UHGV virus genome: UHGV-2020843
Length of the DNA: 24,644 bases
DNA from: a virus
Direction: 5' to 3' (one strand)
A program made the translations under genes and the position numbers. The notes below the pieces were generated by a model. It was not told the origin of the DNA. It was given only the letters and a program-made list of their open reading frames with translations, and searched no databases. Positions 1 to 22,478 of the stretch are shown here, in pieces. Each line of letters starts with the position of its first letter. Positions within the stretch are counted from its first letter, which is position 1.

Positions 1-401
1 GCTGTAGGATTATCAAGCCCGACGTGATCACCATGCCAGTGACTACCGCCATTAATGGAGCAGTCAAAACCTAACAAGATGATGTTTTTCGCCCCCTGGC
101 TGGCAGCAAACAGAATAGCGCGCTGCCCGGAGTTGAAGGCCCACCGGGTATCTGTATCAAACAGATTTAGCCCATAGCGTTTATGAGCCCGGTAATTACA
201 GGTCCAGCGAGAGGCGGAGGACGGCAGAACATCGATGTTTGCATCCCACCAGCGCAGATCACCCGCGTAAATGTATTCACAATCAGGCACGGCTCGCCAG
301 GTGGAGTTAACAGCAATAACCGGCAGCCCCGATCCGGAGATCAGTTCGCAATCTGATTTATTGAGAGACGGGCCGGATGCACAAATGATGAATGTATTCA
401 T
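1..401 (-). CDS. Hypothetical protein, N-terminal 133 aa only (gene continues beyond window start); first gene downstream of Q and the terminator
   Basis: Minus-strand frame open from ATG at 401 to position 1 with no stop (MNTFIICASGPSLNKSDCELISGSGLPVIAV...). GPSL motif is reminiscent of DUF115/MptE-like folds, but this is unverified. Confidence 0.5.
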   Translation of the reverse strand, partial: MNTFIICASGPSLNKSDCELISGSGLPVIAVNSTWRAVPDCEYIYAGDLRWWDANIDVLPSSASRWTCNYRAHKRYGLNLFDTDTRWAFNSGQRAILFAASQGAKNIILLGFDCSINGGSHWHGDHVGLDNPT

Positions 402-594
402 TCGTGTTGACCTGGTTCGGGAGTAATTGGTTACGGTTGCCGATGCTTATCTTCGGCTTGTCTCTGGGGACTGCAATTAACCGTAACGGGGAGAGCACTG
501 AGCCTACTGTGACGGGTTATCGTCACTCTTTCCCCCGAAGGGTGGCCCTCGACGCAGAACGCCCATAAGCCCAATGCTCTTCCCTGTTACGGCC

Positions 595-625
595 ATAAAA
601 AAACCCGCTCGGAGGCGGGTTTAAT
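595..625 (-). terminator. Intrinsic terminator on minus strand (tR'-like position, downstream of Q)
   Basis: Minus-strand reading gives AAACCCGC-CTCCGA-GCGGGTTT followed by TTTTT; lies about 80-110 nt after the Q stop codon. Confidence 0.55.
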
Positions 626-704
626 TTCGTGCAGGCGCAATAACCTACGATTTGAAGCATACACGACAAGTTCGGACAAAATCAAGTTTTAAGTCGCTAA
701 TATG

Positions 705-1508
705 CTAAATTTTGTTCACATCACCACGAAAGCTCGTTGCGTCCTGAAACGCCGAGTCTGCTTTTTGTTCTTCCCTGTGGCAGACGTCGACGAGCACCTC
801 CAGAAACGGTTTCCAGTTACGGGTCCACGTTCTGACGTGCAGATCCGTGACTCGCTTCAGTATCGCTTTATAGGCTGCAGTAGACGGCACCCCAGAAAAT
901 CCGTTTCCGCTGCAGCGCTCGCAGGTTTTGAACACCGGCGCGCCGCGCTCGCTTGTGGCTTTGCGGTCGAGCACCTCACCTTTGCCGCCGCAACGGCATC
1001 GGGCCAGCAGCTCACCTTTACCGTTACATGCCGCGCATTTACGCTTGACCAGTTCGTGCTTGATTTTCGGCGGTACGATTTCCATTCCGTCAGAGTTGAA
1101 GACTCCAGGATGTTTGATCACATCCTCATACTGAGAGGTTAATCCGCTGCCGCTGCAGCTGTGACACGTCACGCTGGTTTCCGCTGAACGGGAGTATTCA
1201 GCAAAGGCGAATTGTGCCAGCGTCAGCATGCACCAGCCAAACTCTCCTGCAGCTGCTTTACGTACATTCCTGGGAGCTGATTCCATTGCATGACGCGCCA
1301 GAGCCTGTACAGCCAGCTGCTCATCACTTTTGCTGATCCCGGTCTTACCAAAGAAGGCAGCCAGACCAAACCGCGCTCGGCTGCTGGTGGTACCAATGGC
1401 CGCCATAACATCGGTGCCGGTGATACGATCCGGAGAGGTTCCTTTCACGTCGTCGCTGATGTGCATTCCCTGAGGGCTAAAGTGTTTTAGTGATGCCTCC
1501 AGTTTCAT
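705..1508 (-). CDS. Q: Late-gene antitermination protein, lambda Q family
   Basis: 267-aa ORF; recalled lambda Q shares blocks EASLKHFSP/ESVAKFHSP, TGTDVMAAIG/SGTDVMAAMG, FGLAAFFGK/FGMAAFCGK, YSRSAET/YCRSAAT, PSTAAYKAI/PASAAYRAV and C-terminal VLVDVCHREEQKAD/ALVVQCHKEESIAD; Cys-rich zinc-finger region. Start overlaps upstream stop as ATGA. Confidence 0.8.
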   Translation of the reverse strand: MKLEASLKHFSPQGMHISDDVKGTSPDRITGTDVMAAIGTTSSRARFGLAAFFGKTGISKSDEQLAVQALARHAMESAPRNVRKAAAGEFGWCMLTLAQFAFAEYSRSAETSVTCHSCSGSGLTSQYEDVIKHPGVFNSDGMEIVPPKIKHELVKRKCAACNGKGELLARCRCGGKGEVLDRKATSERGAPVFKTCERCSGNGFSGVPSTAAYKAILKRVTDLHVRTWTRNWKPFLEVLVDVCHREEQKADSAFQDATSFRGDVNKI

Positions 1509-2365
1509 TCTTCACACTCCCCTACCAGGTTAAGAATCACCGCCGCGCCGTGGTTTTCCATGAATTCGTCCTTTCCACTGTCAAGAAACCAGCGACATAC
1601 CTCAACGGCTTCGACGCGCGTTACGGGTTTGATGGTAGCCAGCAATTTTTCAAGGTAGCGCTCGCGGTCATATACCGATTCGTGATGCTCTGAGTAACCA
1701 AACTCATAGCCCTGTTCTTTAGTTGCAGTGTGGCGAACGCTGTAGAGCCAGTCCCAGTAAACAAACTCACGAACAACGTCAGAAAGCGTATTGGGCTCTG
1801 GCAGTACATCACGATAGCCTTCAACAAATGCCCGGCGCTGTTCATCAATTTCGTTCATACGGCTGCCGTTAATGCTGCCAGCTTTCCTCTCGGCCGGAGT
1901 CCATCCCCAAAGGTGATCGTCGATAAATTTCGGGGAAGACTTGATTACTCGCTCGGCCTCCACATCTTCGAGAGCTGCCTCATAGCTGCCGAACGTGGCC
2001 CTGACTGATGCTGCTTTTTTGATGTCCTCCCGGGCGTTCCTGATTGCCTGTGCCGGGTTATCCATGCCGATGGTACCGAAAGCAACCTGGAAAGGATCGC
2101 CACCATTCGCCAGCAAATAACGCGCGTAACGTTCCTCGGCCTCTTTTGGGGAGATTTCAATTTTCTCCAGCGCGGCTTCGGCTGCGTCCAGATGTGCGGG
2201 TTCGTTCAGACGGATCACCTCCAGCACCCAAAGATAAGCGTCAGTTTGCTTATGCCCGGTGATTCTCCGTTGCTCGGGCAGACGCTTGATGTTTGCGAGG
2301 GCGGAGCTGTGCGCTGCCGTCGGGATGGTGAATAGTGCTTTATGTTCGTTGTTATCAGTACGCAT
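1505..2365 (-). CDS. Hypothetical protein (286 aa) translationally coupled between primase and Q
   Basis: Long ORF with TAATG overlap to primase stop and ATGA overlap to Q start; no motif I can assign. Confidence 0.6.
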   Translation of the reverse strand: MRTDNNEHKALFTIPTAAHSSALANIKRLPEQRRITGHKQTDAYLWVLEVIRLNEPAHLDAAEAALEKIEISPKEAEERYARYLLANGGDPFQVAFGTIGMDNPAQAIRNAREDIKKAASVRATFGSYEAALEDVEAERVIKSSPKFIDDHLWGWTPAERKAGSINGSRMNEIDEQRRAFVEGYRDVLPEPNTLSDVVREFVYWDWLYSVRHTATKEQGYEFGYSEHHESVYDRERYLEKLLATIKPVTRVEAVEVCRWFLDSGKDEFMENHGAAVILNLVGECEE

Positions 2366-3339
2366 TACGCAGCCGCCTTTTTCTTGAAGAAAACCACCTC
2401 ACGAACCTGATCGCCGTTCATGAGCATGTCGTTAAAATCCCCGTTATCCGGGTAGTAGATGCTGATTTTTTCCAGGTCATTTTTTGCCAGTAAGTTGGCA
2501 TGGGCGCATTCCGTGGCCGCAGCCAATCCAGTGGCGCTGTTTACGTCTCGATCTGCGAAAATAATCAAATTTTTCACACCTGCAGGAACACGGAATTTCT
2601 TCATGAATCCGCTGGTCATGGTGGCCCAGGTGTTAACGTTGTATAGCTGCTTGCAGGAAAGAGCCGTTTCGATACCCTCGGCAATTCCGAGGGTCGTCGC
2701 TACCGGGAACATGCGAATAGCGACGGAACGGGCATGATCCAGATAGCTTTCGTCCTGAAGAGATTTCTGGCGCTTCGCTCCGGCAGAATCCCTTAGTTGG
2801 GCTTTCTGATTGCCGTCCAGTAAGGTTCTGTGCAGATAGCAAAGCTCGCCTTTGTCGTCAGTTGCGAGTGAATACAGACACTGGTAAACCTTACCGCCGT
2901 AGCGTTGTTTATCATTGAACTTCACTGCCTCTTGTGGGAGCTGATAAATTCCCCTGGCCTGCAGATATTCCGCCCCGGTAGTTCCTTTCAGGTTGACCAG
3001 TTTCGAAAATTTGGACAGAACCCGATCACGGGCGCTTACGGCATCTGAAGTGCGCGGAAACGCTTCGCGGGTAAAGTTATTACCAATCAGCTGGTCTATT
3101 TCCCTGCAAATTTCATTGAATGGCTTCCCTTGCGTCAGAGTGACAAGCTTCATTCCGTCACCGCTGCCGCAGGTACAGATCCATGTTCCCCGGCCGTCCC
3201 GGTCATCAATACGCAGCTTTCCCCGCGCACCACATACCGGACATTCGCCTTTAAAGTGATTTCTGGCATTAATGGGAGGTAACCCGAAGTGCTCAAAAAT
3301 CATTGCCCATTGACCTTTTGCCGCTTCTGCCGTCTTCAT
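2365..3339 (-). CDS. DNA primase (zinc-ribbon plus TOPRIM domain, phage/P4-type)
   Basis: N-terminal CPVCGARGK...WICTCGSGDG zinc-binding motif followed by TOPRIM-like IAEGIETALS and FADRD acidic motifs; ATGA overlap with helicase stop. Confidence 0.8.
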   Translation of the reverse strand: MKTAEAAKGQWAMIFEHFGLPPINARNHFKGECPVCGARGKLRIDDRDGRGTWICTCGSGDGMKLVTLTQGKPFNEICREIDQLIGNNFTREAFPRTSDAVSARDRVLSKFSKLVNLKGTTGAEYLQARGIYQLPQEAVKFNDKQRYGGKVYQCLYSLATDDKGELCYLHRTLLDGNQKAQLRDSAGAKRQKSLQDESYLDHARSVAIRMFPVATTLGIAEGIETALSCKQLYNVNTWATMTSGFMKKFRVPAGVKNLIIFADRDVNSATGLAAATECAHANLLAKNDLEKISIYYPDNGDFNDMLMNGDQVREVVFFKKKAAA

Positions 3340-4952
3340 GCTCGTTTTCCTAACTGCTGTTTGATATCGCTAATCGCTTTCTGTGCTTGCTGTACTGAGG
3401 ATGGGGCTGCCGTGCCTGATGCCTCCTGCAGGCGCTTGGCCTTCTCCTGCCCTTTCGCATACGCAATCAATTTGTGCCGGATGAAATTAGAGACAGTCGG
3501 GGTGATCTCCATCGGAAAATCGCTTAACCCGTTAGGCCACTCGTCAAACCGTTCGCGAAAGGTATTTGCGCACCAGCCATCGCTGACGGGCTTTTTCCCC
3601 TGCGATACGCGCTGACGCTGATAGAATTTGATCTGACTCCACCAGGCCTGTTTCTCTGCCTTAGTGGGCTGATGCTGGTTTTTACCCAGCTTTTTGAGTT
3701 TGCGGCCGGTGTCGGTATCGACGTCCTCACCGCCCAGCGGCTTATGCCCACATTTCGGGCATACATAGACGCCAGCTGGCTTCATGTAATGGCATTGAGA
3801 GCATTCGTGTGGCAGTTTTTCGGCCCGTTCCTCAGCTGCGCGGCGCGCGCTTTCCTCCATGCCGTCAGACTTACCGGGAAGATCGTCGTACTCGATTGAA
3901 TCCGGATAACCCAAACGGTGCACGGTACCGCTGTGATCGAAGATGAGGCAGGACTCTTTACCCGGTGCGGTGCGCAGGCCACGCCCGAGCGCCTGCAGCC
4001 AGCGAATTTCGCTTTTTGTTGGCCTGGCGTAGATGATGCAACGAACGTCACTATCGAAGCCGGCCACCAGAACGCCCACACTAACGATGATTTTCGTTGC
4101 ACCGGTTTCAAAGCGGTGAATGATGGTCTGGCGTTCATCCACTGGAGTGTCGGCGGTCATGACCTCAGCGTTAACACCCGCCAGGTTAAACTGAATTGTC
4201 AGGTAATTGGCGTGGGCTACGTTGACGCAGAAAGCGATGGTAGGCAGATCCCGGCCATTCTCCAGCCAGTTCTGTACGATGTCGCCCACCAGCGTAGAGC
4301 CGCACATGATTTCAGCCAGCTGCGTTTCGTTGTAATCGCTGCCGTACTCAAGCGATGCTTTGGTTTTAACACCTTTCAGATCCGGCTTAGTTGGCGCGTA
4401 AAATTCATATTTACTCAGATCGCCACGCTGAATTAACTCGCCGATGGTGGTGGGCTTAATCAGTCGGTCATAGTATTTGCCCAGGAACGGGGAAAACGGA
4501 GTACCCGACAGGCCAATCACCTTTACGCCTTTGCCGCGTAGACGGTCGATATCCTTCAGGATGCGTTTTTTACGCAGGTGTGCTTCGTCGATAATCAGCA
4601 GATCGATATTTTCAGGAAAAACACGACGAATAAGCGTATCGGCGCTGGCAATCTGAATTTTCCGGTCCGGATCGTAGTTCGGGTGATCCGCCCAGATATA
4701 ACCGATTTCATCCCCCGGTAATCCATACTCCACGAACCGATTAGCCGTCTGACCGATCAGGATGGTGTACGGTGCACAGAACAGGACGCGCATACCACGG
4801 CTGACAAACCCGGCAACGATGAAGGCCGCCAAACCCGTTTTACCGCTACCGGTTGGCGAATACACCATGAAGGTGTCGTTTGCCTTCCAGTCACGGCGCA
4901 ACATGTTTAGCGCTCGTTCCTGTGCAAAATTCGGCGTGATCGTCAGCTCCAT
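3336..4952 (-). CDS. Phage SF2 DNA helicase (DEAD/DEAH-box type)
   Basis: Walker A SPTGSGKT, Walker B IIDEAHL, C-terminal Cys4 motif CSQCH...CPKCGH; 538 aa; GGGGG ribosome-binding site upstream. Confidence 0.8.
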   Translation of the reverse strand: MELTITPNFAQERALNMLRRDWKANDTFMVYSPTGSGKTGLAAFIVAGFVSRGMRVLFCAPYTILIGQTANRFVEYGLPGDEIGYIWADHPNYDPDRKIQIASADTLIRRVFPENIDLLIIDEAHLRKKRILKDIDRLRGKGVKVIGLSGTPFSPFLGKYYDRLIKPTTIGELIQRGDLSKYEFYAPTKPDLKGVKTKASLEYGSDYNETQLAEIMCGSTLVGDIVQNWLENGRDLPTIAFCVNVAHANYLTIQFNLAGVNAEVMTADTPVDERQTIIHRFETGATKIIVSVGVLVAGFDSDVRCIIYARPTKSEIRWLQALGRGLRTAPGKESCLIFDHSGTVHRLGYPDSIEYDDLPGKSDGMEESARRAAEERAEKLPHECSQCHYMKPAGVYVCPKCGHKPLGGEDVDTDTGRKLKKLGKNQHQPTKAEKQAWWSQIKFYQRQRVSQGKKPVSDGWCANTFRERFDEWPNGLSDFPMEITPTVSNFIRHKLIAYAKGQEKAKRLQEASGTAAPSSVQQAQKAISDIKQQLGKRA

Positions 4953-5380
4953 TGTGCTGCCCCCGTGCTGATGAGATAATAATTTTGTGATGTGGTTTTC
5001 ATGGATTCCCCCTCACATGGCTGGTGGCCTCCCCAAAGGCTGCCAGCCTCCCTTCTGATTCAGCTCCTCTGAAAAAATCACTCTTCCAGGAAGAACCCTT
5101 TTCGTTTCTCAGCGCCTGAGCGCTTTGTACTACCTTGCTGATACAGGCGTTTTTTAAATTGCGCCCTTAAGACAGTGATCTACCTAACCAATGGATCTCT
5201 CCTGTTGGAAAAGACCCTATTCCTGCCCCTACACCCAATCCCCCCTTACCCCCCTTTCCCTCTTCCCCATAAAAACGTACTACTTCCCTAGTACATATGA
5301 GGAGTTGGGTCAGTTGGTTGCCAACCTGAACAGGCACCTTTAAGCCTGCTTCTGTTCGGGTACCTTTAAACCCGAAACAA

Positions 5381-5674
5381 TCAGGATCGCGATTGCGTTC
5401 CAGCCAGGGGAGGTTCGGCGGTATACCCCTGTAAAGCTCTGCCCTGATTTCTCACAAACAGGCGAAGCCTTGTGTTTGCTTCATGCCTTGCCCGGTTCTC
5501 CTTGCGGTACGAAACGGGTTCGGCCTCGAACGTCTCCTGATACACTGCTGCATAACGCTGCATGGCTTTTTGTTTGGCGGCCATACTGAGTGACTGCAGT
5601 TGCTCACCTATCCACTGACTGTCCGCAAGGCAAAACACAGCTGGCATCTCTAACTGCTGAAATGCCTGTGACAT
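5381..5674 (-). CDS. Hypothetical protein (97 aa) immediately downstream of cro (cII-like position)
   Basis: In-frame ATG at 5674 lies 1 nt after the cro stop; the open frame extends to 5776 (131 aa) but that would overlap cro by about 100 nt. No recognisable similarity to lambda CII. Confidence 0.4.
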   Translation of the reverse strand: MSQAFQQLEMPAVFCLADSQWIGEQLQSLSMAAKQKAMQRYAAVYQETFEAEPVSYRKENRARHEANTRLRLFVRNQGRALQGYTAEPPLAGTQSRS

Positions 5675-5675
5675 A

Positions 5676-5906
5676 TCAGATATCCCCGGAAGGTCGTGGG
5701 AATACCGTTGGGATATCAGGCCGTAATTCGTATGGCTTAACCTCCCCGTTTGTAGCCATTGAGATAGCGACTGCATTTTGAGGGGAAATCTTCTGATGGT
5801 TGTTCAGCCACTTCCAAACAGCCCCCTGAGTGACACCGATGGCTCTAGCCAACGCAGATTGGCCCCCTGCCAATCTCACTGCTTTCTGAATAGCGTTTTC
5901 TGACAT
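5676..5906 (-). CDS. cro: Cro/YdaS-like helix-turn-helix regulator
   Basis: 76-aa ORF with HTH-like segment QSALARAIGVTQGAVWKW, divergent from the cI-like repressor across an operator-containing intergenic region. Confidence 0.7.
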   Translation of the reverse strand: MSENAIQKAVRLAGGQSALARAIGVTQGAVWKWLNNHQKISPQNAVAISMATNGEVKPYELRPDIPTVFPRPSGDI

Positions 5907-5922
5907 ATTAGCGCCCTTAAAA

Positions 5923-6010
5923 ATACTTTAGGATTTGGATGATATTACCATAGTATTAATTTAGCAAGAATACTCTAGTGTTGAATGGAAAAAGCTTTTG
6001 TACTAAATTA
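5923..6010. promoter_or_regulatory. Immunity switch: three operator sites (5923-5936, 5945-5958, 5970-5983) with divergent PR-like and PRM-like promoters
   Basis: Three 14-bp sites each 2 mismatches from palindrome AATACTATAGTATT, spaced 22-25 bp. Minus strand -35 TTGCTA (5963-5968) and -10 TATCAT (5940-5945), 17-bp spacer, for cro. Plus strand -35 TTGAAT (5982-5987) and -10 TAAATT (6005-6010), 17-bp spacer, for cI. Confidence 0.5.
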
Positions 6011-6039
6011 ATCCGATCGTATTAACCAGAGGCAAAAAC

Positions 6040-6747
6040 ATGAGTGGAACGACTTTTTCGGACCGGCTAAGAGACAGCATGCAGAAGGCTGGGCTGACCC
6101 AAAGCCAGTTAGCTGAAGCAGTCGGAGTGTCACAGGGGGCAATTCAGAAACTTGTATCTGGTAAGGCAAAGTCGACAACTAAGCTTGTTCAGATAGCTAA
6201 TGTCCTTGGTGTTCGCCCTGAATGGTTAAGCGAAGGCGTTGGTGCGATCCGTAAATCAGATGATTTCCCTCCAGAAGAAAAGTGGAGCAAAGTCGAGACC
6301 TGGGATAGCAACACGCCTTTAGAATCTGATGAAGTGGAAGTCCCATTCCTTAAAGATATTGAGTTTGCATGCGGTAGCGGCAGAGTTATGGAAGAAGATT
6401 ACAACGGTTATAAACTGAGGTTTTCGAAGTCTACCCTGAGAAGAGTTGGAGCAAGCACAGATGGTTCAGGCATTATCTGTTTCCCGGCTGCCGGGAACAG
6501 TATGGAACCACTCATACCAGACGGTACAACAGTGGCTGTTAACATCGAAGACAAAAAAATCGTTGATGGAAAGATTTACGCGATCAATCAGGAAGGGTGG
6601 AAGCGGATCAAACTCCTATACCGGACAGGCCCGGATGAGTTGACTATCCGTAGCTATAACGCAGAAGAGTACCCTGATGAGGTAGTGAAGATGTCCAGCG
6701 TAGAGGTCGTTGGTAGAGTGTTTTGGACTTCTACAGTTTGGAACTAA
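6040..6747 (+). CDS. cI: CI-type phage repressor (N-terminal HTH, C-terminal S24/LexA-like peptidase domain)
   Basis: 235 aa; HTH LTQSQLAEAVGVSQGAIQKL; C-terminal AGNSMEP Ser motif and downstream Lys (KRIK), typical of autocleaving LexA/CI repressors; GAGG ribosome-binding site upstream. Confidence 0.85.
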   Translation: MSGTTFSDRLRDSMQKAGLTQSQLAEAVGVSQGAIQKLVSGKAKSTTKLVQIANVLGVRPEWLSEGVGAIRKSDDFPPEEKWSKVETWDSNTPLESDEVEVPFLKDIEFACGSGRVMEEDYNGYKLRFSKSTLRRVGASTDGSGIICFPAAGNSMEPLIPDGTTVAVNIEDKKIVDGKIYAINQEGWKRIKLLYRTGPDELTIRSYNAEEYPDEVVKMSSVEVVGRVFWTSTVWN

Positions 6748-6748
6748 G

Positions 6749-6770
6749 CCGGGGAAACCCGGTTTTTTTT
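6749..6770 (+). terminator. Intrinsic terminator after cI
   Basis: CCGGG-GAAA-CCCGG hairpin followed by T8, immediately after the cI stop codon. Confidence 0.65.
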
Positions 6771-6828
6771 GCGAAAAAAAATAAAATCCATTATTTTCAT
6801 TAGGTTACATGAAAAAGAAAATAAGATT

Positions 6829-6869
6829 AATACTATAGTATTGACGCGGGATTAATCCTCCCCTATTCT
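6829..6869 (+). promoter_or_regulatory. PL-like early promoter with perfect palindromic operator
   Basis: Perfect 14-bp palindrome AATACTATAGTATT (6829-6842) overlapping -35 TTGACG (6841-6846); 17-bp spacer; -10 TATTCT (6864-6869); about 30 bp upstream of ORF 6901. Confidence 0.5.
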
Positions 6870-6900
6870 CATCTCATCGGCAAACAACGGAGCCAGTGAG

Positions 6901-7221
6901 ATGACGACCAATACGACAATCAAAAAATTATATCAGCTTGTTGATATTCCAGATTTTCGCTACAGCAAAGATAGTTCAAGTATTGATTATGGTGATATTG
7001 CATCAGATTGCGATACTAAAACTGTTTCTATCTTTGAAGCCATTAACCATATCAGCTTAAATATTTTTTCCATTGCTGAAGATAAAGAAATCAGCAAAGA
7101 AAAGATATTAAACCTTTCTTGTATCATCGCTGACCTTGCAGAAATTGGAATGGCAACGAATAAAATTTCTCAAGCTGCCTCATATCTTTCTGGATTAAAG
7201 GATGGCAATCATGGCGCATGA
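6901..7221 (+). CDS. Hypothetical small acidic protein (106 aa), first gene after the PL-like promoter
   Basis: ORF in AT-rich segment directly downstream of predicted early promoter; no recognisable motif. Confidence 0.5.
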   Translation: MTTNTTIKKLYQLVDIPDFRYSKDSSSIDYGDIASDCDTKTVSIFEAINHISLNIFSIAEDKEISKEKILNLSCIIADLAEIGMATNKISQAASYLSGLKDGNHGA

Positions 7222-7405
7222 ATTTTCATTAGAACAAGCGAAAGAGAAAGCATATCAGGCAGAAATAATCTGCAAAATGATTGAGTTATACCCCAACAAA
7301 ATGGACTGTTCTGAAATCGAGGCCATTGCAGCATTATTAAGTAAGTTAACCAGTGATGTTTGTGCATGGTTAATTGAAGAGCAAGCTATTAGATCCAACG
7401 CTTAG
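7211..7405 (+). CDS. Hypothetical small acidic protein (about 65 aa)
   Basis: ORF overlapping the previous gene's end (alternative start at 7202); AT-rich. Confidence 0.45.
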   Translation: MAHEFSLEQAKEKAYQAEIICKMIELYPNKMDCSEIEAIAALLSKLTSDVCAWLIEEQAIRSNA

Positions 7406-7578
7406 TTTTTTTAGATTCCTAAATAAATAACAGCTTTATTGCTGAGGGGATTCCATACACTTTTTTAGGAAAAAACATGATAAACATCAACGCCTTTAAT
7501 ACTGCTAAGTTATTTTGTTCAGCCGGTTACTGGGATATTGCGAATTTATATCTCAGGAAAGCATACGGGAGATAAATC

Positions 7579-7803
7579 ATGTCAACACAAGATCGCCAAG
7601 ACGTGCAAGGTGTGAATATTAAAGCTGAACAACTTAACTTCCTTATGCAAACAATTCACGCTCACCATAAGGATTTTGACTGCCATCAACTTGATGGCCT
7701 TTTAGGTCTGGCTTATGACCTTGCCGGGTCGGTATATAGCTGGCCCGAGGCAGAGGAAAGGATCGTTTTAGAAAATGAAGATGCACAAAGAAAGGTGTAT
7801 TAA
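7579..7803 (+). CDS. Hypothetical small acidic protein (74 aa)
   Basis: ORF with GGGAG ribosome-binding site; stop TAA immediately followed by the next ATG. Confidence 0.5.
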   Translation: MSTQDRQDVQGVNIKAEQLNFLMQTIHAHHKDFDCHQLDGLLGLAYDLAGSVYSWPEAEERIVLENEDAQRKVY

Positions 7804-8169
7804 ATGGATAATTTAACCAATACGTATCGCCGAAGAATTTTAAAAGCTGCGTTATTACGCCACCAGCGTAAAACCGGAAGCACCTGCATCATTATTAATA
7901 TGCCTAAAGGTGGAATAAACACAGTCGAATTAACAGAAATACTGCTTGATGGTTTGTTGAGACGATTCGAAAAGCTGGCTCTCAGTGAATACGGGAATAT
8001 CGACGGTGTAAAAGCCATCAGAGGAATTTACAGCAACGCCGTAGATGTGAATGGCAGCGGTGAGTTCCTGACAGAAAGCGGAAAGGCATTAATCGACGAT
8101 CTCATTGCTGAGCTGGTCGAATTTGCTAAGAAACAAAAATCAGTCACAGCGGAGACAAGCCATGAGTGA
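7804..8169 (+). CDS. Hypothetical protein (121 aa) with arginine-rich N-terminus
   Basis: ORF begins MDNLTNTYRRRILKAALLRHQRK; contiguous with flanking ORFs. Confidence 0.5.
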   Translation: MDNLTNTYRRRILKAALLRHQRKTGSTCIIINMPKGGINTVELTEILLDGLLRRFEKLALSEYGNIDGVKAIRGIYSNAVDVNGSGEFLTESGKALIDDLIAELVEFAKKQKSVTAETSHE

Positions 8170-8374
8170 TCAGACACCAATTATCACGCACGAACCAGTA
8201 AATATCGTGCTGACAATCGAGAACGGGAAAGTTATCCACGCGCGCCCGGTTCAGAACGGCGAGGTTACAGCATCGCTGGAGACTTTTTTATGGATGGCTG
8301 AACAAGCCGGTTACACGATCACCCCACCTGCAGGAGAGAAGGACAATGGCCCTGACAGCGATACGAATTCCTGA
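8162..8374 (+). CDS. Hypothetical small acidic protein (70 aa); candidate antitoxin partner of the following ORF
   Basis: ATG at 8162 with GGAG ribosome-binding site 7 nt upstream; overlaps upstream stop and overlaps downstream ORF by 29 nt. Confidence 0.45.
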   Translation: MSDQTPIITHEPVNIVLTIENGKVIHARPVQNGEVTASLETFLWMAEQAGYTITPPAGEKDNGPDSDTNS

Positions 8375-8567
8375 GTGGGTGCACCTGCAGGCGGTCCATG
8401 TCCTCCGCCAGTTCAGAGCCAGGCGGATTCATCCCTGCCGTATGCACGGCTCCGGAAACCTGAGCCTGAGGGTTAATCGCCGCTGGCGGCTGCTGTCCCG
8501 AGACGGCGGCCATAACTGGGAAGTAATGAGCCATGAACGATACAGCAAACTGAAGGACAGAAAATGA
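8346..8567 (+). CDS. Candidate RelE/ParE/HigB-superfamily toxin-like protein (73 aa)
   Basis: Segment GSGNLSLRVNRRWRLLSRDGGHNWEVMSHERY resembles the RelE/HigB core (recalled E. coli HigB GGNELRVVAMVFF...YIREVMTHKEYD); strong ribosome-binding site GGAGAGAAGGA; GC-rich relative to neighbours. Confidence 0.4.
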   Translation: MALTAIRIPEWVHLQAVHVLRQFRARRIHPCRMHGSGNLSLRVNRRWRLLSRDGGHNWEVMSHERYSKLKDRK

Positions 8568-8665
8568 AAGCGCTTTTCCTTTCCCTGCTGTTTGGCCTGT
8601 TATTGGTGGCCGTCGTTTTCGGCGCGCTGATTGAGTACAAATTTTTGATGGATTTCGGGAGTTGA
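8564..8665 (+). CDS. Small hydrophobic peptide (33 aa), likely membrane-inserted
   Basis: MKALFLSLLFGLLLVAVVFGALIEYKFLMDFGS; ATGA overlap with upstream stop; AAGGA ribosome-binding site. Confidence 0.4.
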   Translation: MKALFLSLLFGLLLVAVVFGALIEYKFLMDFGS

Positions 8666-8667
8666 TT

Positions 8668-8880
8668 ATGAAAACGGGACAACAACCAGCTTACCCATGC
8701 CCTCGCACTGATTCTCCTCAGGGTATGACATATCGCCAGTATCTTGTAAGTCAGCTCGCGCCCGTAATCGCTGCTCAGTTCTTCGAAAGTAGCGCATGGA
8801 CCGACTACGACGACATGGGCGGCTCTCTGATGATGATGGTCGACAGCATTATTGAAGCTGAAAAGGAGACAGCACAATGA
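8668..8880 (+). CDS. Hypothetical small acidic protein (70 aa)
   Basis: ATG at 8668 with GGGAG ribosome-binding site; the ORF track extends it to a TTG at 8662. Confidence 0.45.
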   Translation: MKTGQQPAYPCPRTDSPQGMTYRQYLVSQLAPVIAAQFFESSAWTDYDDMGGSLMMMVDSIIEAEKETAQ

Positions 8881-9275
8881 GCAAATCAGCAAAAGAGCTT
8901 TATACCGTACCTGAATGGATGCGCCCATACCTTACGTTATTCCAAAACACTGGAGGTAATGACGTTGAGGATCTGCTGCACGATGAAGACACCAATATGT
9001 TCGCAAATAGCATTCGGTACATGTTGATCGTGTCCGCTCGTTCACAATTCAGATTGCTGATGGATATGTATAAAAATGGGCAGATTATCGAGCTTGAAAC
9101 GATGAAAACAGACCCTGTTGGTGAAGATTATCAGTCAGCGATCGACATCTTGCGCGACAGAGCTGCTCGCGAACTCGATGGTGGTTTTCGCTCACATCAC
9201 AACGCCCTGATTTATGCAGCTAATGAACTGGAAAATGCCCAGGCCTTCGGGCGGGAGGTCAGCCATGAGTCTTGA
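8877..9275 (+). CDS. Hypothetical protein (132 aa)
   Basis: ORF with ATGA overlap to the upstream stop; no recognisable motif. Confidence 0.5.
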   Translation: MSKSAKELYTVPEWMRPYLTLFQNTGGNDVEDLLHDEDTNMFANSIRYMLIVSARSQFRLLMDMYKNGQIIELETMKTDPVGEDYQSAIDILRDRAARELDGGFRSHHNALIYAANELENAQAFGREVSHES

Positions 9276-9474
9276 TTGCGTACCCCTTTCTACGTACTGC
9301 AGGGACGCGGGGGAAACGGTAGAAGCCGTTAACAAACGGATACAAAGGGGGTTATGGAAGGAGGGAGTACATGTATTAAAAGTCGATGGCGTTAAAGAAC
9401 GCTGGATTGACTTAACGGAGGTTTCAAAGTGGGCAAGAAAGAACAAGGATCATTATCTCTCCCAAGAGGAGTAA
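9265..9474 (+). CDS. xis: Excisionase-like protein
   Basis: About 69 aa, immediately upstream of and overlapping the integrase; GGGAGG ribosome-binding site; small basic DNA-binding-like protein in the canonical xis position. Confidence 0.55.
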   Translation: MSLDCVPLSTYCRDAGETVEAVNKRIQRGLWKEGVHVLKVDGVKERWIDLTEVSKWARKNKDHYLSQEE

Positions 9475-10601
9475 CCATCCGCCAGCATAAAACTGGCGAC
9501 ACTCTGGTTATCACTTTCACATACAAAGGGGTTCTGTGCCGGGAGCCCCTCTCCAAAATGGAAGCAAACGCGCGCGGTGTGAAGTACGCCGAGCGCCTGC
9601 TCGGGGAGATACAGAACCAGATCGTCAGTGGCACCTTTGAATATGCGAAATATTTCCCCAACTCCAAAAAGCTGGAGCTATTCGGGGTGGTGAAGAAAAC
9701 CAAAAACATAAAGTCCTACCTGGACGAGTACCTCAAAATCTGCCAGAACCGCAACCTGTCCCCGTCGACTATAAATGGTTATGAAAAATGCCTGTCGGCA
9801 CTGTCAGCTCTGCATAAACTCCACGTGTCAGAACTGACGCCAGCGGTCCTTAAAAACTGGATAGCCAGCCGGAAAACAAAGCTGAAAACGACCAGGAATA
9901 ACCTTTCGTTTCTGCGCAGCGCAATCGATGAAGCTGTTACGGATGGCCTGCTGACCATTAACCCGGTAACCCTCGTCAGCGCCAGCCGGTACCACGTGAT
10001 CGACAGCAGCCCGAGCGCCGACGATTACGAGGTTGACCCGTTCACGCCAGCGGAGACCCTCGCCATTTACCAGAACTGCAGGTACCCGGAATGGGAAAAC
10101 CTGTTCCGCTTTGCTTTCAATACCGGTCTGCGGAGCTCCGAACTGTGCGCGCTGCGCTGGCCTGATCTCGACACCATCGCGAACACAGCCCACGTTCAGG
10201 CGGCCAGTGTCGTAGGGGTACTTAAAGGCACCAAGACAAAAGCCGGTACCCGCAAGGTGGAGCTGAACAGTGAGGCGCTGGCGGCCCTGCAGGCGCAGAA
10301 GCAATACACCTTTATGAAAAGTGAGTTCATATTCAGCGATCCGAAAACGGGAGAACCCTGGGCGAACGCCGACGCTATCCGTAAAAAAGCATGGGTGCCG
10401 ACCCTGAAAAAAGCTGGCGTGCGCTACCGTAACCCGTACCAGACGCGGCACACATTCGCCACCAAGCATATTAGCCAGGGCGTTAACCTCTTCTGGCTTG
10501 CCGGACAGATGGGCCACAAAGGGCCGGAAATGATATTCCGCAACTACGGTAAATACCTGGCTGAATATGACGGTAAAACCGCGATTTCAACCGCGCTGTA
10601 G
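9429..10601 (+). CDS. int: Tyrosine site-specific integrase (lambda Int-like)
   Basis: 390 aa; C-terminal catalytic region with RHTFATKH, GHKG and YGKY (R-H-R-Y type residues); located next to the attachment-site core. Confidence 0.85.
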   Translation: MGKKEQGSLSLPRGVTIRQHKTGDTLVITFTYKGVLCREPLSKMEANARGVKYAERLLGEIQNQIVSGTFEYAKYFPNSKKLELFGVVKKTKNIKSYLDEYLKICQNRNLSPSTINGYEKCLSALSALHKLHVSELTPAVLKNWIASRKTKLKTTRNNLSFLRSAIDEAVTDGLLTINPVTLVSASRYHVIDSSPSADDYEVDPFTPAETLAIYQNCRYPEWENLFRFAFNTGLRSSELCALRWPDLDTIANTAHVQAASVVGVLKGTKTKAGTRKVELNSEALAALQAQKQYTFMKSEFIFSDPKTGEPWANADAIRKKAWVPTLKKAGVRYRNPYQTRHTFATKHISQGVNLFWLAGQMGHKGPEMIFRNYGKYLAEYDGKTAISTAL

Positions 10602-10724
10602 CGGGGTAAATATTTCAAAATGTTGGACAGAATCAGGACGTTAGACAGACCTCAATATGCACGTAAAATGCACCTGAGGTATATCACAGTGAAAGAATTG
10701 TTTATTTTCAATGAGTTAAATGCC

Positions 10725-10760
10725 TTTCGGACGCGAGTTCAACTCCCGCCAGCTCCACCA
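10725..10760 (+). other. Attachment-site core: 36-nt copy of the 3' end of tmRNA (ssrA) ending in CCA, not a complete gene
   Basis: TTTCGGACGCGAGTTCAACTCCCGCCAGCTCCACCA matches the recalled 3' end of E. coli ssrA with one mismatch (A for G in the T-arm stem); sequence upstream does not resemble the ssrA body. Confidence 0.7.
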
Positions 10761-15351: not shown

Positions 15352-15978
15352 ATGACATACGATAGTGAATTCGGATCACATGTATCCCTATATCGGGATA
15401 GAATCAAACAGGTTATTGATGACTCCCTAAACGAACATCTTAACTCAATGATTCTACGTGTTGATCTGCATGACCCAATTGATACAGAAAATATGGATAA
15501 CCCATTCTTTCAACCCAGGGTTGACTCTGGTGCTATATCTCGCTTTACCAGTGCGTTAAAAGCAAAGCTTAAACACGATAAGCATATTAAAACTCAACGG
15601 AAAGACTGGCCTGATACTCGACATTCAACCTTACGTTACGCATGGGTCCGAGAATATACCAAAAATAGAAAGCGGCATTACCATTTGATACTGTGTTTCA
15701 ATCAGGATGCTTATTATCATTTAGGTGATTACGACTTAAACCGTAACACGTTACGTACAATGATAACGACAGCTTGGTACAGTGCACTTGGCATCCCTAT
15801 AGATAGCTCGGGGAAGTTAGTTAATTACCCGCCAAATGGCAAATACCTTCTCAATCGTAAAAGGGACAACTTTGAGCAGACTTATAGCGATTTGATGAAT
15901 AGGGTGGATTACATGACCAAAGTAAGGACTAAAATAGTCGGTGACGGAGACCGTAATTTCGGCTGCAGTCGCGGGTAA
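15352..15978 (+). CDS. yfjJ: YfjJ, YagK/YfjJ-family protein (inovirus Gp2-like replication-initiation fold)
   Basis: 208-aa ORF with AGGA ribosome-binding site, followed by a hairpin terminator. Confidence 0.7.
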   Translation: MTYDSEFGSHVSLYRDRIKQVIDDSLNEHLNSMILRVDLHDPIDTENMDNPFFQPRVDSGAISRFTSALKAKLKHDKHIKTQRKDWPDTRHSTLRYAWVREYTKNRKRHYHLILCFNQDAYYHLGDYDLNRNTLRTMITTAWYSALGIPIDSSGKLVNYPPNGKYLLNRKRDNFEQTYSDLMNRVDYMTKVRTKIVGDGDRNFGCSRG

Positions 15979-16155: not shown

Positions 16156-18345
16156 TCAATGTCGTCTAATACCGAGCGCGCGCCTGATAAACATCTGATC
16201 AACGTACCCAATCGATCTACTCCAAATGTCCTGAGTATCCCGAAGATACTGGCTCAACTCATCCACATCAGCCTCGTCGGAAAATTCCAGCAAGTCTACC
16301 AGTCGGTGTAACGTCTGAATGGGAATGCCAATCTCTTCTAAGGCATTGACACCTGGTGGTAGATGGAAACTTTCGAACGCCAATTTGACATGTGTGTAAT
16401 CGACTTTGCTGCGTATACCACGCTTTACAGCGTGGTGTTTAACTACATCCTCCATCAAGCTGAGCACCTTAGGTAGGGTATAGCCGAAGGTATTGGTTAT
16501 GAGCTTCAAATCATTGTTGAGGGCAATGGAAAGAGTACGTTTCTCCCCTTCAGAAATCCACTGTCGTGCATAATCGATCTGATTTTTCAGATATTCCGAA
16601 TAACTTTCAGCACTTAAATAGCCGGCAAGTTTTGCGATCATGACATCCGTAGGCTTAACAGGGACCCCATTGCGACTGAACGTATGGGGAACCAGTCTGG
16701 CAATGATCTTTGCAAAGGTCTTGAGGAAGTTTGTCGCGGGAGTCCAGTGAAACACTAACGAGGAAAATTCGTTATCGTCCATCATCTCGAACATGCTTTG
16801 CAGCATTTCGAACTGCTCGACACGGAAGTACGAATGCTTCTTCACAAGGTCGATGGAAACACGGTCGTTTATGAAAACCTCATCAAAGCGATCCTGTGAA
16901 AACTCGGACAAGTGGTCTGGTTGAACGCTGGCTAACAGGTTGATTGGGGTATCAATGCCCTGAATACCGAGCGGAATATCCACCTCTTGATTGAGATTGT
17001 CTTCCGGGATTTCCTCCAGGCAAAAGATTTTGCCGACGAAGTGAACGCCCATGCGCCCGGCGCGACCTTTGATGTTCCCATGGGTGAATTTGTCAATGCT
17101 GCGAGTTCCATCGCGGTTGTCGTAGATCACAACGTTCTTAGCGATAGTGTTGACTCCTTCAATGATCGTGGAGGTGCAGAGCAAAAAGCGCAGTTTTCCA
17201 GCATTGAATTGGTCGGCAGTGTATTGCTGCAGTGCCCTCGGTAGCGCGCCAAAATGCAAGCCAATACCGTTTCTAAGGGCGACTGTGTAATCCCAGTCGG
17301 CATCGAACTCTTCGCTGACCCAGTCGACATGGGGATTCTCAGTCGGAGTGCCATGCCCAAGCCTGATCAGCTCGCGCGCCACCAGGCCCGCAACAGTTGG
17401 TGACTTGCAATAAATGATCGTTGCGTCGACACATGCGTGCGCGATTTCCCCCAGCGCTTTGAGCTTGGCTTTGTCGTCATTCGCTTTGATGCCGAACGTC
17501 TTAACATCTAGCGCGACTGTATTGAAGTCGGTAGAAACGAAAGTATGCGGATATCCAAGTTTTTCGAGACCGCGAATGCTGTTAACGAACGGTCCCGTCA
17601 GGTAAAACTGCCTGGAGACCTTAAGCAGTTTGCTTAACGCAATGTTGAGCTCGATGACTCGTTCGTCTTGATGATCAATGTCCCCGCTTTTCAGTTGTCG
17701 GAACGCCAACTTGTAAAACTCGTCAATGACGAAGAGGTCAATGTCGACGATGTCGTCACGCTCGTTCACTCGCTCCTGAGTTAACACATAAACAGCCTGA
17801 TCGGAATGGCACACTTGGGAACTGTGGTGGATGATCTGATATCGGTCACCGAATCGCTCTTGCAGTCGGCGACGGGTTTCGTCGGCAAGAGCCACGGTTG
17901 GAACAACCAGAACAAGCCGTTTCAAAGTTCCCATGCCGAGCAATGAATCGACGATTGCACTTTTGCCCATGCTTGTAGGTGCACTCAGCACCACGTTTTG
18001 ACCAGACTTGAGCAGATCGAATATGTGGAACTGCATTGAGTGGAAAACATAACCATCCGAGAATGGCGTCCGGTATAGCTCAAGCACCCTCAGGTCATCC
18101 GGTGTCAGGCTGGTGAACTCCTTTTTGAGATACGGGAACAAACCTGATTTTCTCACCATATTTTTCAAAATTGTGGTGTGCTCGGAAAACCGCTCGCGCG
18201 AATCGAGAGCTCGCACGATCAAGTCCCGTCCCAAGTCATACGAAACAGGGTTAGACAACAGCTTGTTAACCGCAAACAGATAATTGAACGATGAGAAGTC
18301 CTCACCCTGCAGGCTATGTTTCGCCTGTTCATAGATCTCTGTCAT
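16156..18345 (-). CDS. yfjK: SF2 helicase YfjK (AbpB), Hachiman-type defence helicase HamB homologue
   Basis: 729 aa with Walker A LSAPTSMGKS and DEAD/DExH-like VIDEFYKL; ATGA overlap with the upstream yfjL stop. Confidence 0.85.
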   Translation of the reverse strand: MTEIYEQAKHSLQGEDFSSFNYLFAVNKLLSNPVSYDLGRDLIVRALDSRERFSEHTTILKNMVRKSGLFPYLKKEFTSLTPDDLRVLELYRTPFSDGYVFHSMQFHIFDLLKSGQNVVLSAPTSMGKSAIVDSLLGMGTLKRLVLVVPTVALADETRRRLQERFGDRYQIIHHSSQVCHSDQAVYVLTQERVNERDDIVDIDLFVIDEFYKLAFRQLKSGDIDHQDERVIELNIALSKLLKVSRQFYLTGPFVNSIRGLEKLGYPHTFVSTDFNTVALDVKTFGIKANDDKAKLKALGEIAHACVDATIIYCKSPTVAGLVARELIRLGHGTPTENPHVDWVSEEFDADWDYTVALRNGIGLHFGALPRALQQYTADQFNAGKLRFLLCTSTIIEGVNTIAKNVVIYDNRDGTRSIDKFTHGNIKGRAGRMGVHFVGKIFCLEEIPEDNLNQEVDIPLGIQGIDTPINLLASVQPDHLSEFSQDRFDEVFINDRVSIDLVKKHSYFRVEQFEMLQSMFEMMDDNEFSSLVFHWTPATNFLKTFAKIIARLVPHTFSRNGVPVKPTDVMIAKLAGYLSAESYSEYLKNQIDYARQWISEGEKRTLSIALNNDLKLITNTFGYTLPKVLSLMEDVVKHHAVKRGIRSKVDYTHVKLAFESFHLPPGVNALEEIGIPIQTLHRLVDLLEFSDEADVDELSQYLRDTQDIWSRSIGYVDQMFIRRALGIRRH

Positions 18346-19958
18346 ACGACCTCTCTCACCTTCTCATCAACTAATTGGGTTAACCGCTCAAGACTCGGGG
18401 CTGGATAAATGAATACGTGGATGCAAAGATTCGCAAACGGCGAATCCTCGATGAGGTCAGCCGCGAATTTTTCGAACAGCACCGCTGTTTCTTTCTCCAG
18501 GTCATCCTCGAACCCCGGCGTTTCAGGCTCGGTTAGTAGATTAGAGTCGTAGCCCACGAACAGAACAAACGTGAAACGATCGAGGTGAGCATCGAAAGGT
18601 TGGCTGCCATCAAGAATTTCGTCAATGTCGTGGCGAAGCAGGTAGTTATCGTCTTTAATGTCGAGGATTTTTTTGCGCGCGGTATCGATGCAATCCGAAA
18701 TGTCCTCGTACAACTGATCCCGTATCTCCGGCAATCTGACGGCAATGTTAATATCAGTCACCAACTCGCTGAAGCCAATCCAAAGCTGATCACCTTCTGG
18801 ATCGCGGCGAACGATATGCACGTTTTCAAGAATTTTTTCGGCCCCTGCTTTTTCCACGTATAGCATGCAAGGAATAGGCTGGCTTTCGTGGTGCTGCCGG
18901 ATCGTTGCGTGCAACAGCACTCGACCCAAAAATTCGCTGACGTCATGGAGCGATTTGAAGACGGAATTCTTTAGTCGTTCTCGCTTTTCAATGAATGTCA
19001 GTTTATGAATATCAGACATTTCTTTTGGTCGGAGAAAAACCTCATCCAACCATTGACAGACGTTATCCGCGATGTGCTTGTAGCGGTATTTCTTAAGTGA
19101 GTACTGCTGATGTAGAACCTGGCCTTTACGCTTAGCGCAGACCGAAGCCATAGGCGCTCTAAATGGCGTAAGGATGTGGGGTAAGTCCCGTTTGACGTAG
19201 ATTTTGCGGCCTGACCGAGATTGGTCATCTTCGACACGCTGCTTGAACCACTCAAGTAGGTCTGGTCGTAAGTAGGACTTGTCATCAGCACTGTGAATGC
19301 GTCGAGAATGCTCGCCCTTGCGCGTCACAGTATCAAGGATGCGGCACCAAATGTCTTCGGCGACGGTTTCGGAACTGAGAATGACCCCATGTAGATCTTG
19401 GGAGGCCAGCCGTATGTTCTTGATCCCTAGAAGTTCCAGTTCGCGCAGGGATGAAAACACTTCCCATGTAGCCGCATCGATCCAATCTGAAACGCTTATA
19501 CCTGAGTCTGTTAAAAAATTGTCTGTGCGTTTGTTGAGGTCATCGATGAGTTCCTGTCGACCTGGCTTATCTAGTCGGGCGTTTGGGCTGATCGTCAAGT
19601 ACTCAAGGGTTTTGTTGACCTTTTCCTCTGTGACGATGGAGTACCTACGTCCAAGGGACAGGTCAGACTCACACTGCATTGATTTGTGCAAAATTGAACT
19701 GCAGGGGATCGTCTTTTTATCAGCACCTTTTGAATTCTGAACGATGTCCGAAATGTTCCAACGTGTTTTGCCGGTGCTTTTTACCTGAACGAAGTCGATG
19801 TATCCATCAGATACAATGTCGATATCGTCTGTGACCTCGCAGCGCACACTGCGGATAGTCTTGTCACGAAGCATTCGGGTGACATGGTAAGCGGCTACGC
19901 AGTCCTGAAATAAGAAACCGTGCTTGGCGGCTACTCCGCCTGAATCGTTCGACTCCAT
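18342..19958 (-). CDS. yfjL: YfjL (AbpA), Hachiman-type defence effector HamA homologue (DUF1837-type)
   Basis: 538-aa ORF immediately upstream of and translationally coupled to the helicase, in the conserved CP4-57 position. Confidence 0.8.
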   Translation of the reverse strand: MESNDSGGVAAKHGFLFQDCVAAYHVTRMLRDKTIRSVRCEVTDDIDIVSDGYIDFVQVKSTGKTRWNISDIVQNSKGADKKTIPCSSILHKSMQCESDLSLGRRYSIVTEEKVNKTLEYLTISPNARLDKPGRQELIDDLNKRTDNFLTDSGISVSDWIDAATWEVFSSLRELELLGIKNIRLASQDLHGVILSSETVAEDIWCRILDTVTRKGEHSRRIHSADDKSYLRPDLLEWFKQRVEDDQSRSGRKIYVKRDLPHILTPFRAPMASVCAKRKGQVLHQQYSLKKYRYKHIADNVCQWLDEVFLRPKEMSDIHKLTFIEKRERLKNSVFKSLHDVSEFLGRVLLHATIRQHHESQPIPCMLYVEKAGAEKILENVHIVRRDPEGDQLWIGFSELVTDINIAVRLPEIRDQLYEDISDCIDTARKKILDIKDDNYLLRHDIDEILDGSQPFDAHLDRFTFVLFVGYDSNLLTEPETPGFEDDLEKETAVLFEKFAADLIEDSPFANLCIHVFIYPAPSLERLTQLVDEKVREVV

Positions 19959-20217
19959 TTAGACATCCGTGACAATTTTGCGAAAATTAAGGAGATGTTA
20001 TGACACAGTCCAATCGGATCACTGCATCATCACCAGTGATCTAAATACTTCACAGCCATTCTCGGTCGCAGGTATCAAGCTTTTCAGGATTCCACAAATA
20101 TTGTAACCCTGACGTCTAATTTGGTTATATAACATACTGCCCCAACTAACGTAAGGTAGGCACAGCCTTAATCAAGGTTTTGGTTTTCAAATAGTTCAGA
20201 GCTGAGACCGCCAACCG

Positions 20218-20284
20218 CACTATGGCACTATGGCACTATGGCACTATGGCACTATGGCACTATGGCACTATGGCACTATGGCAC
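20218..20284. repeat. Perfect tandem octamer repeat (TATGGCAC) x 8, intergenic
   Basis: Eight uninterrupted copies of TATGGCAC (20221-20284) preceded by a partial CAC; lies between the yfjM stop and the yfjL start. Confidence 0.95.
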
Positions 20285-20333
20285 CGCCAGCGATTGTAAT
20301 CACACTTGATATTATAAAACACAGTTGCACGCA

Positions 20334-20597
20334 TTATTTCCTGGTTGGTAGGGTCATATCTCGATGCTCTTTGAGCAATGTCAACATCGCGTGTTCATGG
20401 CTTTCTATATTGTTGATGCCTTGCCCATCCGGACCCCACTCCTTATAGCTCATCATGATGGCTTGTTTTGGGCTCTCTGCTCGTTCTGTTTCGACGTAGA
20501 ATTTTTTCTTGTCTGCTGGCGAATAATTACTAAGTATCGAGTTGCTGCTTGGTGAGATCAGGAAGAGGTTACCGAAACGATGGACATCATCCCCCAT
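20334..20597 (-). CDS. yfjM: Small uncharacterised island protein YfjM
   Basis: 87-aa ORF in the CP4-57 position between yfjL and rnlA. Confidence 0.6.
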
Positions 20598-22176: not shown

Positions 22177-22478
22177 AACTCTTCTTTCTAAACGAACCAG
22201 TATAGAATTCGCCCTTTTGGCATGATATTAACTTGTCCAATATGATCAAATAGCATTAACCCCCCCTCACAACGTCCTGCATAGGGAACACGTTTTCCCC
22301 TGTGCACCCACGACTAAATTTCCCCCCCTTTAAACTTCTCAATAATGTCACCAATTTTCTGGAAATCCTATGATGCCTTTCCCGGTAAATGGTGCTGTGA
22401 GTTCAGAAAGATTCTGCAATCTATGTGCATTGAAAAAATCTTCAGATAGATATCATTCTCCTGAACAATCCGATGAAC

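Follow-up and report, generated by a model that had tools for sequence, protein, structure and literature searches.

An octamer repeat upstream of the Hachiman operon abpAB of CP4-57 is probably a young, slippage-prone tract in insertion sequence-derived DNA

The intergenic region between yfjM and the anti-phage operon abpAB (type I Hachiman, HamA-HamB) of the E. coli element CP4-57 carries a perfect octamer array whose copy number differs between genomes. This variable-number tandem repeat (VNTR) is slippage-prone and probably young, lies in non-functional DNA derived from an insertion sequence (IS), and probably plays no role in the control of Hachiman. It was analyzed in a stretch of 24,644 nucleotides from the UHGV virus genome UHGV-2020843, referred to here as the window. 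This analysis adds that the surrounding DNA is the scar of an IS3-family element and that the array expanded stepwise across orthologous loci; the slippage events themselves are already contained, unremarked, in published tables. The features of the window that are relevant to the array are:

20217-20284, read on the + strand: octamer VNTR, GCAC followed by (TATGGCAC)8 (Tandem Repeats Finder, exact-match scan and alleles of other genomes)
20138-20352, - strand: 5'-truncated IS3-family (ISEc16-like) remnant with the last ~50 orfB codons and the right terminal inverted repeat
20334-20597, - strand: yfjM, what remains (87 aa) of a GmrSD-type (DUF262/DUF1524) restriction gene (Pfam)
18342-19958, - strand: abpA (yfjL, HamA), Cap4-type nuclease and HamA domains (Pfam, RefSeq annotation)
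16156-18345, - strand: abpB (yfjK, HamB), SF2 helicase (Pfam, RefSeq annotation)
from 20739, + strand: rnlA-rnlB

Tandem Repeats Finder reported the array at 20217-20284 with a period of 8, 8.5 copies, 100% matches and no indels (score 136). Eight copies of TATGGCAC follow each other head to tail at 20221-20284 and are preceded by the partial unit GCAC; on the - strand, from which yfjM and abpAB are transcribed, the array reads (GTGCCATA)8 GTGC. It is the only array of more than three copies that the program found in the 24.6-kb window, all others having at most 2.9 copies. An exact-match scan detected two further occurrences of TATGGCAC outside the array (0.63 expected), and the total of 10 matches was reached by none of 100 shuffles; an array of eight units is far beyond chance. 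The perfect eightfold repeat described in an earlier note on this DNA was thereby confirmed, and the distances given there to the yfjL start and the yfjM stop were also correct: the abpA ATG (19958, - strand) is located 260-326 bp downstream of the array, and the yfjM stop codon at 20334 is 50 bp away from it. An assembly artefact was considered and rejected, since an independent complete genome (mip270_04) carries the identical 8-unit allele; assemblies with 6, 7 and 10 units and identical flanks, as well as published short-read calls, also contradict it. Inspection of the octamer unit revealed no EcoKI, Dam or Dcm sites. On the + strand, the array contains an ATG in every unit and is free of stop codons in three frames (repeating MALWHYGT), while TAG occurs within 24 nt in all three frames of the - strand. 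A mechanically called 72-aa ORF (20230-20448, + strand) begins within the array and runs antisense to the IS remnant and yfjM; it is probably spurious and meaningless.

The relationship of the surrounding DNA to an insertion sequence emerged from eight plasmid matches in a search with a 751-bp query around the array, which led to an 'IS3-like element ISEc16 family transposase'. By blastn, window positions 20149-20224 (79% identity) and 20272-20350 (86% identity) align with ISEc16, both collinear with the 3' end of orfB, and ISEc16 carries a single GCACTGTG at the site of the array. A tblastx comparison of the remnant with an ISEc16-type element gave an e-value of 2.5e-17. When the eight units are replaced by one, the - strand of the remnant yields a 39-residue translation that aligns with the C-terminal end of ISEc16 OrfB. 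Homology continues past the orfB stop to the TG at 20138, the expected position of the terminal repeat, where ISEc16 agrees at ~12 of the 19 terminal positions. A distant search found IS3-family copies that match both flanks, and whose length fits a single unit, in 4411 of the 5426 E. coli genomes; in one example (H149), the match spans 146 bp against 202 bp of the query. Taken together, these comparisons assign 20138-20352 to the IS3 family. Since no orfA, left end or transposase is present, and since nothing IS-like was found past ~20352, where homology ends abruptly, the segment is a remnant and not an element. It thus resembles elements of the ISEc16/IS3 group in having the orfB 3' end and the right terminal repeat in correct order and orientation, but differs from them in that only ~155 bp survive (the expansion not counted), with neither transposase nor left end. 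The array is located inside its dead orfB; the remnant is oriented like yfjM and abpAB, and the yfjM stop codon falls within IS-derived DNA. Because a unit of 8 bp is not a multiple of three and would shift the orfB reading frame, the expansion must postdate the death of orfB. Immediately 5' of the array on the - strand (20284-20291) lies GCTGGCGG, which differs by one mismatch from the Chi octamer GCTGGTGG. As GCTGGCGG also occurs in ISEc16 it is IS-derived, and the likeness to Chi is probably a coincidence.

Orthologous loci provide intermediate stages. A distant plasmid search returned two megaplasmids, pAR0468_1 (Enterobacter asburiae) and pRHBSTW-00267_2 (Citrobacter freundii), that match the whole intergenic region. 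Their islands are arranged in the order type III R-M, two GmrSD-like genes (446 and 641 aa), abpA and abpB, with the IS remnant between the 641-aa gene and abpA, and the array consists of three imperfect units, GTGCCATA GTGCCGTA GTGCCGTA GTGCC. A search with the AbpA protein identified a chromosomal locus of Providencia alcalifaciens (AbpA 90% identical) that possesses the GmrSD pair and the IS remnant as well, but only a single unit, GTGCTATAGTACC, at the array site. Apart from the repeat, the Providencia, plasmid and CP4-57 loci are 86-98% identical. The loci therefore form a series of one (Providencia), three (plasmids) and six to ten units (CP4-57). In Aeromonas, Pseudomonas and Shewanella, abpA (85-87% identical at the protein level) has other neighbors, and neither the IS scar nor the repeat was found at these loci; for this reason, the array is not a conserved part of the abpAB system. 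What these loci share with CP4-57 upstream of the abpA ATG amounts to 68 bp in Aeromonas, 38 bp in Pseudomonas and 30 bp in Shewanella. This stretch corresponds to window positions 19959-20026, with the promoter proposed for abpAB (TAGACG/TGGAAT, see below) outside it; natively, this Hachiman subtype may thus rely on a very short conserved control region. Within E. coli, a distant search for diverged abpA upstream regions returned the 363 CP4-57 copies alone, all at least 99% identical, and the exact AbpA protein was found in 8130 blocks (near-identical places collapsed to one). AbpA of the window is 100% identical to the K-12 protein.

The same loci also clarify yfjM, which matches positions 77-126 of the 138 positions of the Pfam GmrSD_C profile. 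Intact orthologues in the same position are 641 aa long in the Enterobacter and Citrobacter plasmids and 632 aa in Providencia, so that yfjM is the C-terminal stump of a type IV restriction gene. The intact GmrSD-like pair (446 and 632-641 aa) lies directly upstream of abpAB (L021, 9195-12447; L024, 429-3654). Given this pair in the plasmids and in Providencia, the ancestral island would have had the order GmrSD-GmrSD-HamA-HamB, of whose GmrSD pair CP4-57 retains 87 codons. The Hachiman operon of CP4-57 adjoins the array, but the repeat lies outside the system as defined in the literature.

A simple path from the IS to the array can be proposed. On the transcribed strand, the ancestral IS-derived seed would have been GTGCC-ATA-GTGCC, a 5-bp direct repeat with 8-bp spacing and thus a proto-repeat of 1.6 copies. 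Replication slippage between the two GTGCC copies could have duplicated the 8-bp unit; slippage would then have become easier as the perfect array grew longer, leading to three units on the plasmids and to six to ten in CP4-57 of E. coli. The array shows the hallmarks of simple sequence repeat (SSR) and VNTR loci: near-identical head-to-tail units, alleles that differ by whole units between identical flanks, and gains and losses observed in real time (literature tables). Like bacterial loci used in MLVA typing, it has perfect units, conserved flanks and different alleles among near-identical strains, it gains and loses single units in laboratory lines, and it appears to have originated from a short proto-repeat. 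Its 8-bp unit sets it apart: E. coli has few long repeats other than mononucleotide tracts, and a unit of this size is uncommon there.

To survey alleles, we compared the 751-bp query with 5426 complete E. coli genomes, of which 363, nearly all K-12 derivatives, contain the locus. Direct counts gave the following alleles:

MG1655: 6 units
NEB 5-alpha, ER2796 and TUM1509 (K-12 laboratory derivatives): 7 units
mip270_04 (manure isolate): 8 units
window (UHGV-2020843): 8 units
MB06021 (Galapagos seawater isolate): 10 units

An absence of such a repeat from the K-12 reference, as implied by the earlier note, is refuted: MG1655 carries it, with six units, and accordingly aligns over 735 bp of the 751-bp query (i.e. 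16 bp shorter). Across the 363 genomes, translation of the identity bands of a 188-bp query into unit counts gave 6 units in ~358, 7 in three, 8 in one and 10 in one genome, and no allele of fewer than six units. Copy number is therefore not invariant across E. coli genomes, the comparison proposed in the earlier note, and the 6-, 7-, 8- and 10-unit alleles share identical flanks of 20-25 bp. Six units were also present in two E. coli representatives of GTDB. In a metagenome scan with the left flank, six contigs were recovered, all with the 6-unit K-12 allele, which probably represent K-12 itself; a scan of viral contigs gave no match. Among species-representative genomes, arrays of at least three units comprised the E. 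coli locus and four unrelated matches of 3-4 units in MAGs, which were judged to be due to chance.

Changes by single units are on record in K-12 lines: (i) a gain of GCACTATG in the yfjL/yfjM intergenic region of a macrophage-evolved clone (PMC4709186); (ii) a change of (TATGGCAC)6->7 between abpA and yfjM in a heat-adapted line (PMC12812777); and (iii) a deletion of one unit (PMC4382111). Gains and losses of one unit by slippage thus occur, and these events together with the 6-, 7-, 8- and 10-unit alleles support the earlier proposal that copy number changes by slipped-strand mispairing. The papers found list the locus as a line in mutation tables, and none treating it as a marker was found. 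Across the 13.9 kb of CP4-57 contained in the window, a single SNP separates MB06021 from MG1655, yet MB06021 has four additional units; the window shows six SNPs and two additional units relative to MG1655, and the background of mip270_04, with eight units, is 8 further SNPs away. The array changes faster than point mutations accumulate but is not hypermutable. In absolute terms it is fairly stable, because K-12 sublines separated by decades nearly all keep six units, and the slippage rate appears to be well below that of classical contingency loci. Laboratory-derived alleles in complete genomes are all gains (7 units), none being shorter than six; this could hint at a directional bias or at selection, although the numbers are tiny and one deletion has been recorded. 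Two of the genomes with longer alleles show other differences. In MB06021, ISKpn24 (IS66 family) has inserted between yfjS and yfjT; this 'environmental' isolate may stem from an escaped K-12 strain or be a laboratory derivative. Compared with the window, MG1655 and MB06021, mip270_04 contains a 2-bp insertion (CC) between rnlB and yfjP (at about window position 22259).

The position of the array relative to the start of abpAB transcription bears directly on a possible regulatory role. Genomic SELEX with sigma70 holoenzyme has placed a constitutive promoter for yfjLK, TAGACG-18-TGGAAT, in the yfjL-yfjM spacer (PMC3946193). This promoter, the only one proposed for abpAB, is a prediction from binding data, and its hexamers were located here in the window sequence. 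Two features are needed for what follows:

20089-20118, - strand: proposed sigma70 promoter of abpAB, with the -35 TAGACG at 20118-20113, an 18-nt spacer and the -10 TGGAAT at 20094-20089
20077-20082, unstranded: HindIII site AAGCTT at the end of the insert of clone pST4-1 (mapped with window 19500 = NC_000913.3 2764695)

On the transcribed strand, the proposed promoter follows the array and lies immediately beyond the end of the IS remnant. A SELEX peak of RpoS (sigmaS; PMC5493296) converts to about window position 20120, the conversion between genome versions being approximate. A simple consensus scan called a promoter neither at the TAGACG/TGGAAT site nor in the array. The transcribed strand has no predicted intrinsic terminator in the yfjM-abpA interval, so read-through from yfjM is possible. 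The yfjM-abpA intergenic transcript folds no better than its shuffles (z = +1.06), and Rfam gave 0 matches in the whole window.

With this arrangement, a change of one unit could alter the distance and helical phase (~274 degrees per unit) to the abpAB core promoter, or the leader length of read-through transcripts from yfjM, so that cells would come to differ in how strongly they express a costly defence system. We consider such tuning unlikely. Copy number does vary, with changes arising on laboratory time scales, and transcripts reading through from yfjM would include the array in view of the lack of a predicted terminator. Tuning could also be useful, as over-expressed Hachiman imposes a cost in another system (PMC13064477). 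In addition, a mutation between yfjL and yfjM became more frequent and passed between co-housed mice during gut evolution with active phages (PMC10340439). On the other hand, the array lies outside the -35/-10 spacer, 99-166 bp upstream of the proposed -35, and further upstream in CP4-57 only the rest of the IS scar and a gene remnant are found. Orthologous loci function with one or three units or without any IS-derived DNA, and steps of 8 bp provide no on/off switch of frame or spacing. The functional AbpAB clone pST4-1, a HindIII fragment (NC_000913.3 2760763-2765275) that gives strong defence (PMC10732053), contains neither the array nor the IS remnant nor the promoter hexamers, all of which lie to the right of the HindIII site. 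The array is therefore dispensable for AbpAB function; since expression of the clone may come from a vector promoter, it is uninformative on native regulation.

The array can also be compared with contingency repeats of Neisseria, Haemophilus and Moraxella (the TA tract between -35 and -10 of hif, the TAAA tract upstream of the nadA promoter, and uspA1). It resembles these in preceding an operon for which the level of expression could be important and in changing its length by slippage. It differs from them in that it lies outside the core promoter and is flanked by no known regulator site, that its mutation rate is evidently much lower, that it has no known expression phenotype, and that it has expanded recently in IS-derived DNA instead of being a conserved feature of the operon. 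With the predicted promoter as reference, it occupies neither a promoter spacer nor a coding frame nor a defined regulator site, but non-coding IS DNA. Contingency loci switch at rates of 1e-2 to 1e-4; retention of six units in ~358 of the 363 genomes, mostly K-12 sublines, points to slower change in the array. A literature search returned no report of abpAB expression as a function of repeat copy number. Of the phase-variable defence control suggested by the earlier note, the slippage thus holds, whereas the control of expression found no support and is disfavored by the anatomy of the locus.

A related and likewise unlikely reading regards the array as a slow mutational rheostat, in which its length, its helical phase or the number of TGcCATAGT motifs shifts the basal expression of abpAB. 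If this were true, lineages would trade self-toxicity and DNA-damage sensitivity against protection from phages, and the recurrent 6->7 events and the mouse-gut mutation in yfjL/yfjM would be selected and not neutral. Under the preferred reading of a neutral tract, the mutation in the mouse gut may be a hitch-hiker. Together with the gains-only laboratory alleles and the TGcCATAGT motif, we count it against neutrality. Copy number nevertheless appears to drift with no meaningful effect on abpAB, the promoter region of which is situated downstream of the IS remnant.

Two further readings concern proteins that might bind the repeat itself. Each unit contains TGcCATAGT, which resembles an extended -10 element (TGnTATAAT) directed toward abpA, so that the array might act as a cluster of weak promoters or RNA polymerase-binding sites, more units recruiting more polymerase or driving more upstream transcription into abpAB. 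The motif fits four of six -10 positions, including A-11 and T-7, as well as the TG, and the sigma70 and sigmaS SELEX peaks fall in the intergenic region with a resolution of 100-200 bp that is compatible with the array. This idea is nonetheless very unlikely: it is derived from motif inspection only, the motif lacks T-12 and is accompanied by no -35, the consensus scan called no promoter in the array, and the converted SELEX peak center (~20120) falls on TAGACG/TGGAAT and not on the repeat. It is more improbable still that the array serves as an iteron-like set of binding sites for a regulator of CP4-57 (AlpA, YfjR) or, via TGGCAC, for sigma54. Eight identical sites do stand in tandem, and TGGCAC is the sigma54 -24 hexamer, but it points away from abpA. 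Nor is TATGGCAC enriched elsewhere in the island (two extra copies, i.e. chance level), and with an 8-bp period neighboring sites do not face the same side of the helix. Conservation across orthologous loci, as for iterons, is also lacking, with a single unit in Providencia, three imperfect ones on the plasmids and none at the other loci. A sigma54 promoter as such was rejected, as no match to TGGCAC-N5-TTGCW within two mismatches was found at or near the array, and no -12 at the right spacing.

The array has some practical consequences. It is a recurrent hotspot of one-unit indels in K-12 resequencing, and such changes should be regarded as background in evolution experiments unless shown otherwise. 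Possibly, it can also serve as a fine-scale marker to separate K-12-like lineages. Moreover, it would offer a clean, dated case of minisatellite birth, from a 5-bp proto-repeat in a dead insertion sequence through one and three to 6-10 units. Should copy number alter Hachiman expression after all, the locus would represent a rare case of an E. coli anti-phage system tuned by a repeat.

The remainder of the window deserves a brief description. Positions 1-10760 are neither K-12 nor CP4-57 DNA and belong to another integrated, lambdoid-like element, which includes:

705-1508: antiterminator Q
2365-3339: Toprim/zinc-ribbon primase
3336-4952: SF2 helicase
6040-6747: CI/LexA-like S24 repressor
9429-10601: tyrosine integrase

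The closest relatives of this left element in complete genomes (DX6 and others) are 95-96% identical over only ~60% of its length. K-12 homology begins at 10725, within the final 36 bp of ssrA, which implies that two elements are arranged in tandem at the ssrA attachment site. A tRNA/tmRNA scan of the window detected none, which was read as the window not reaching ssrA. Within yfjJ (15576-15649), five SNPs in 74 bp are unique to the window when compared with MG1655, MB06021 and mip270_04, and outside this patch the 13.9 kb show one difference from MG1655. The cluster in yfjJ looks like a short recombination patch.
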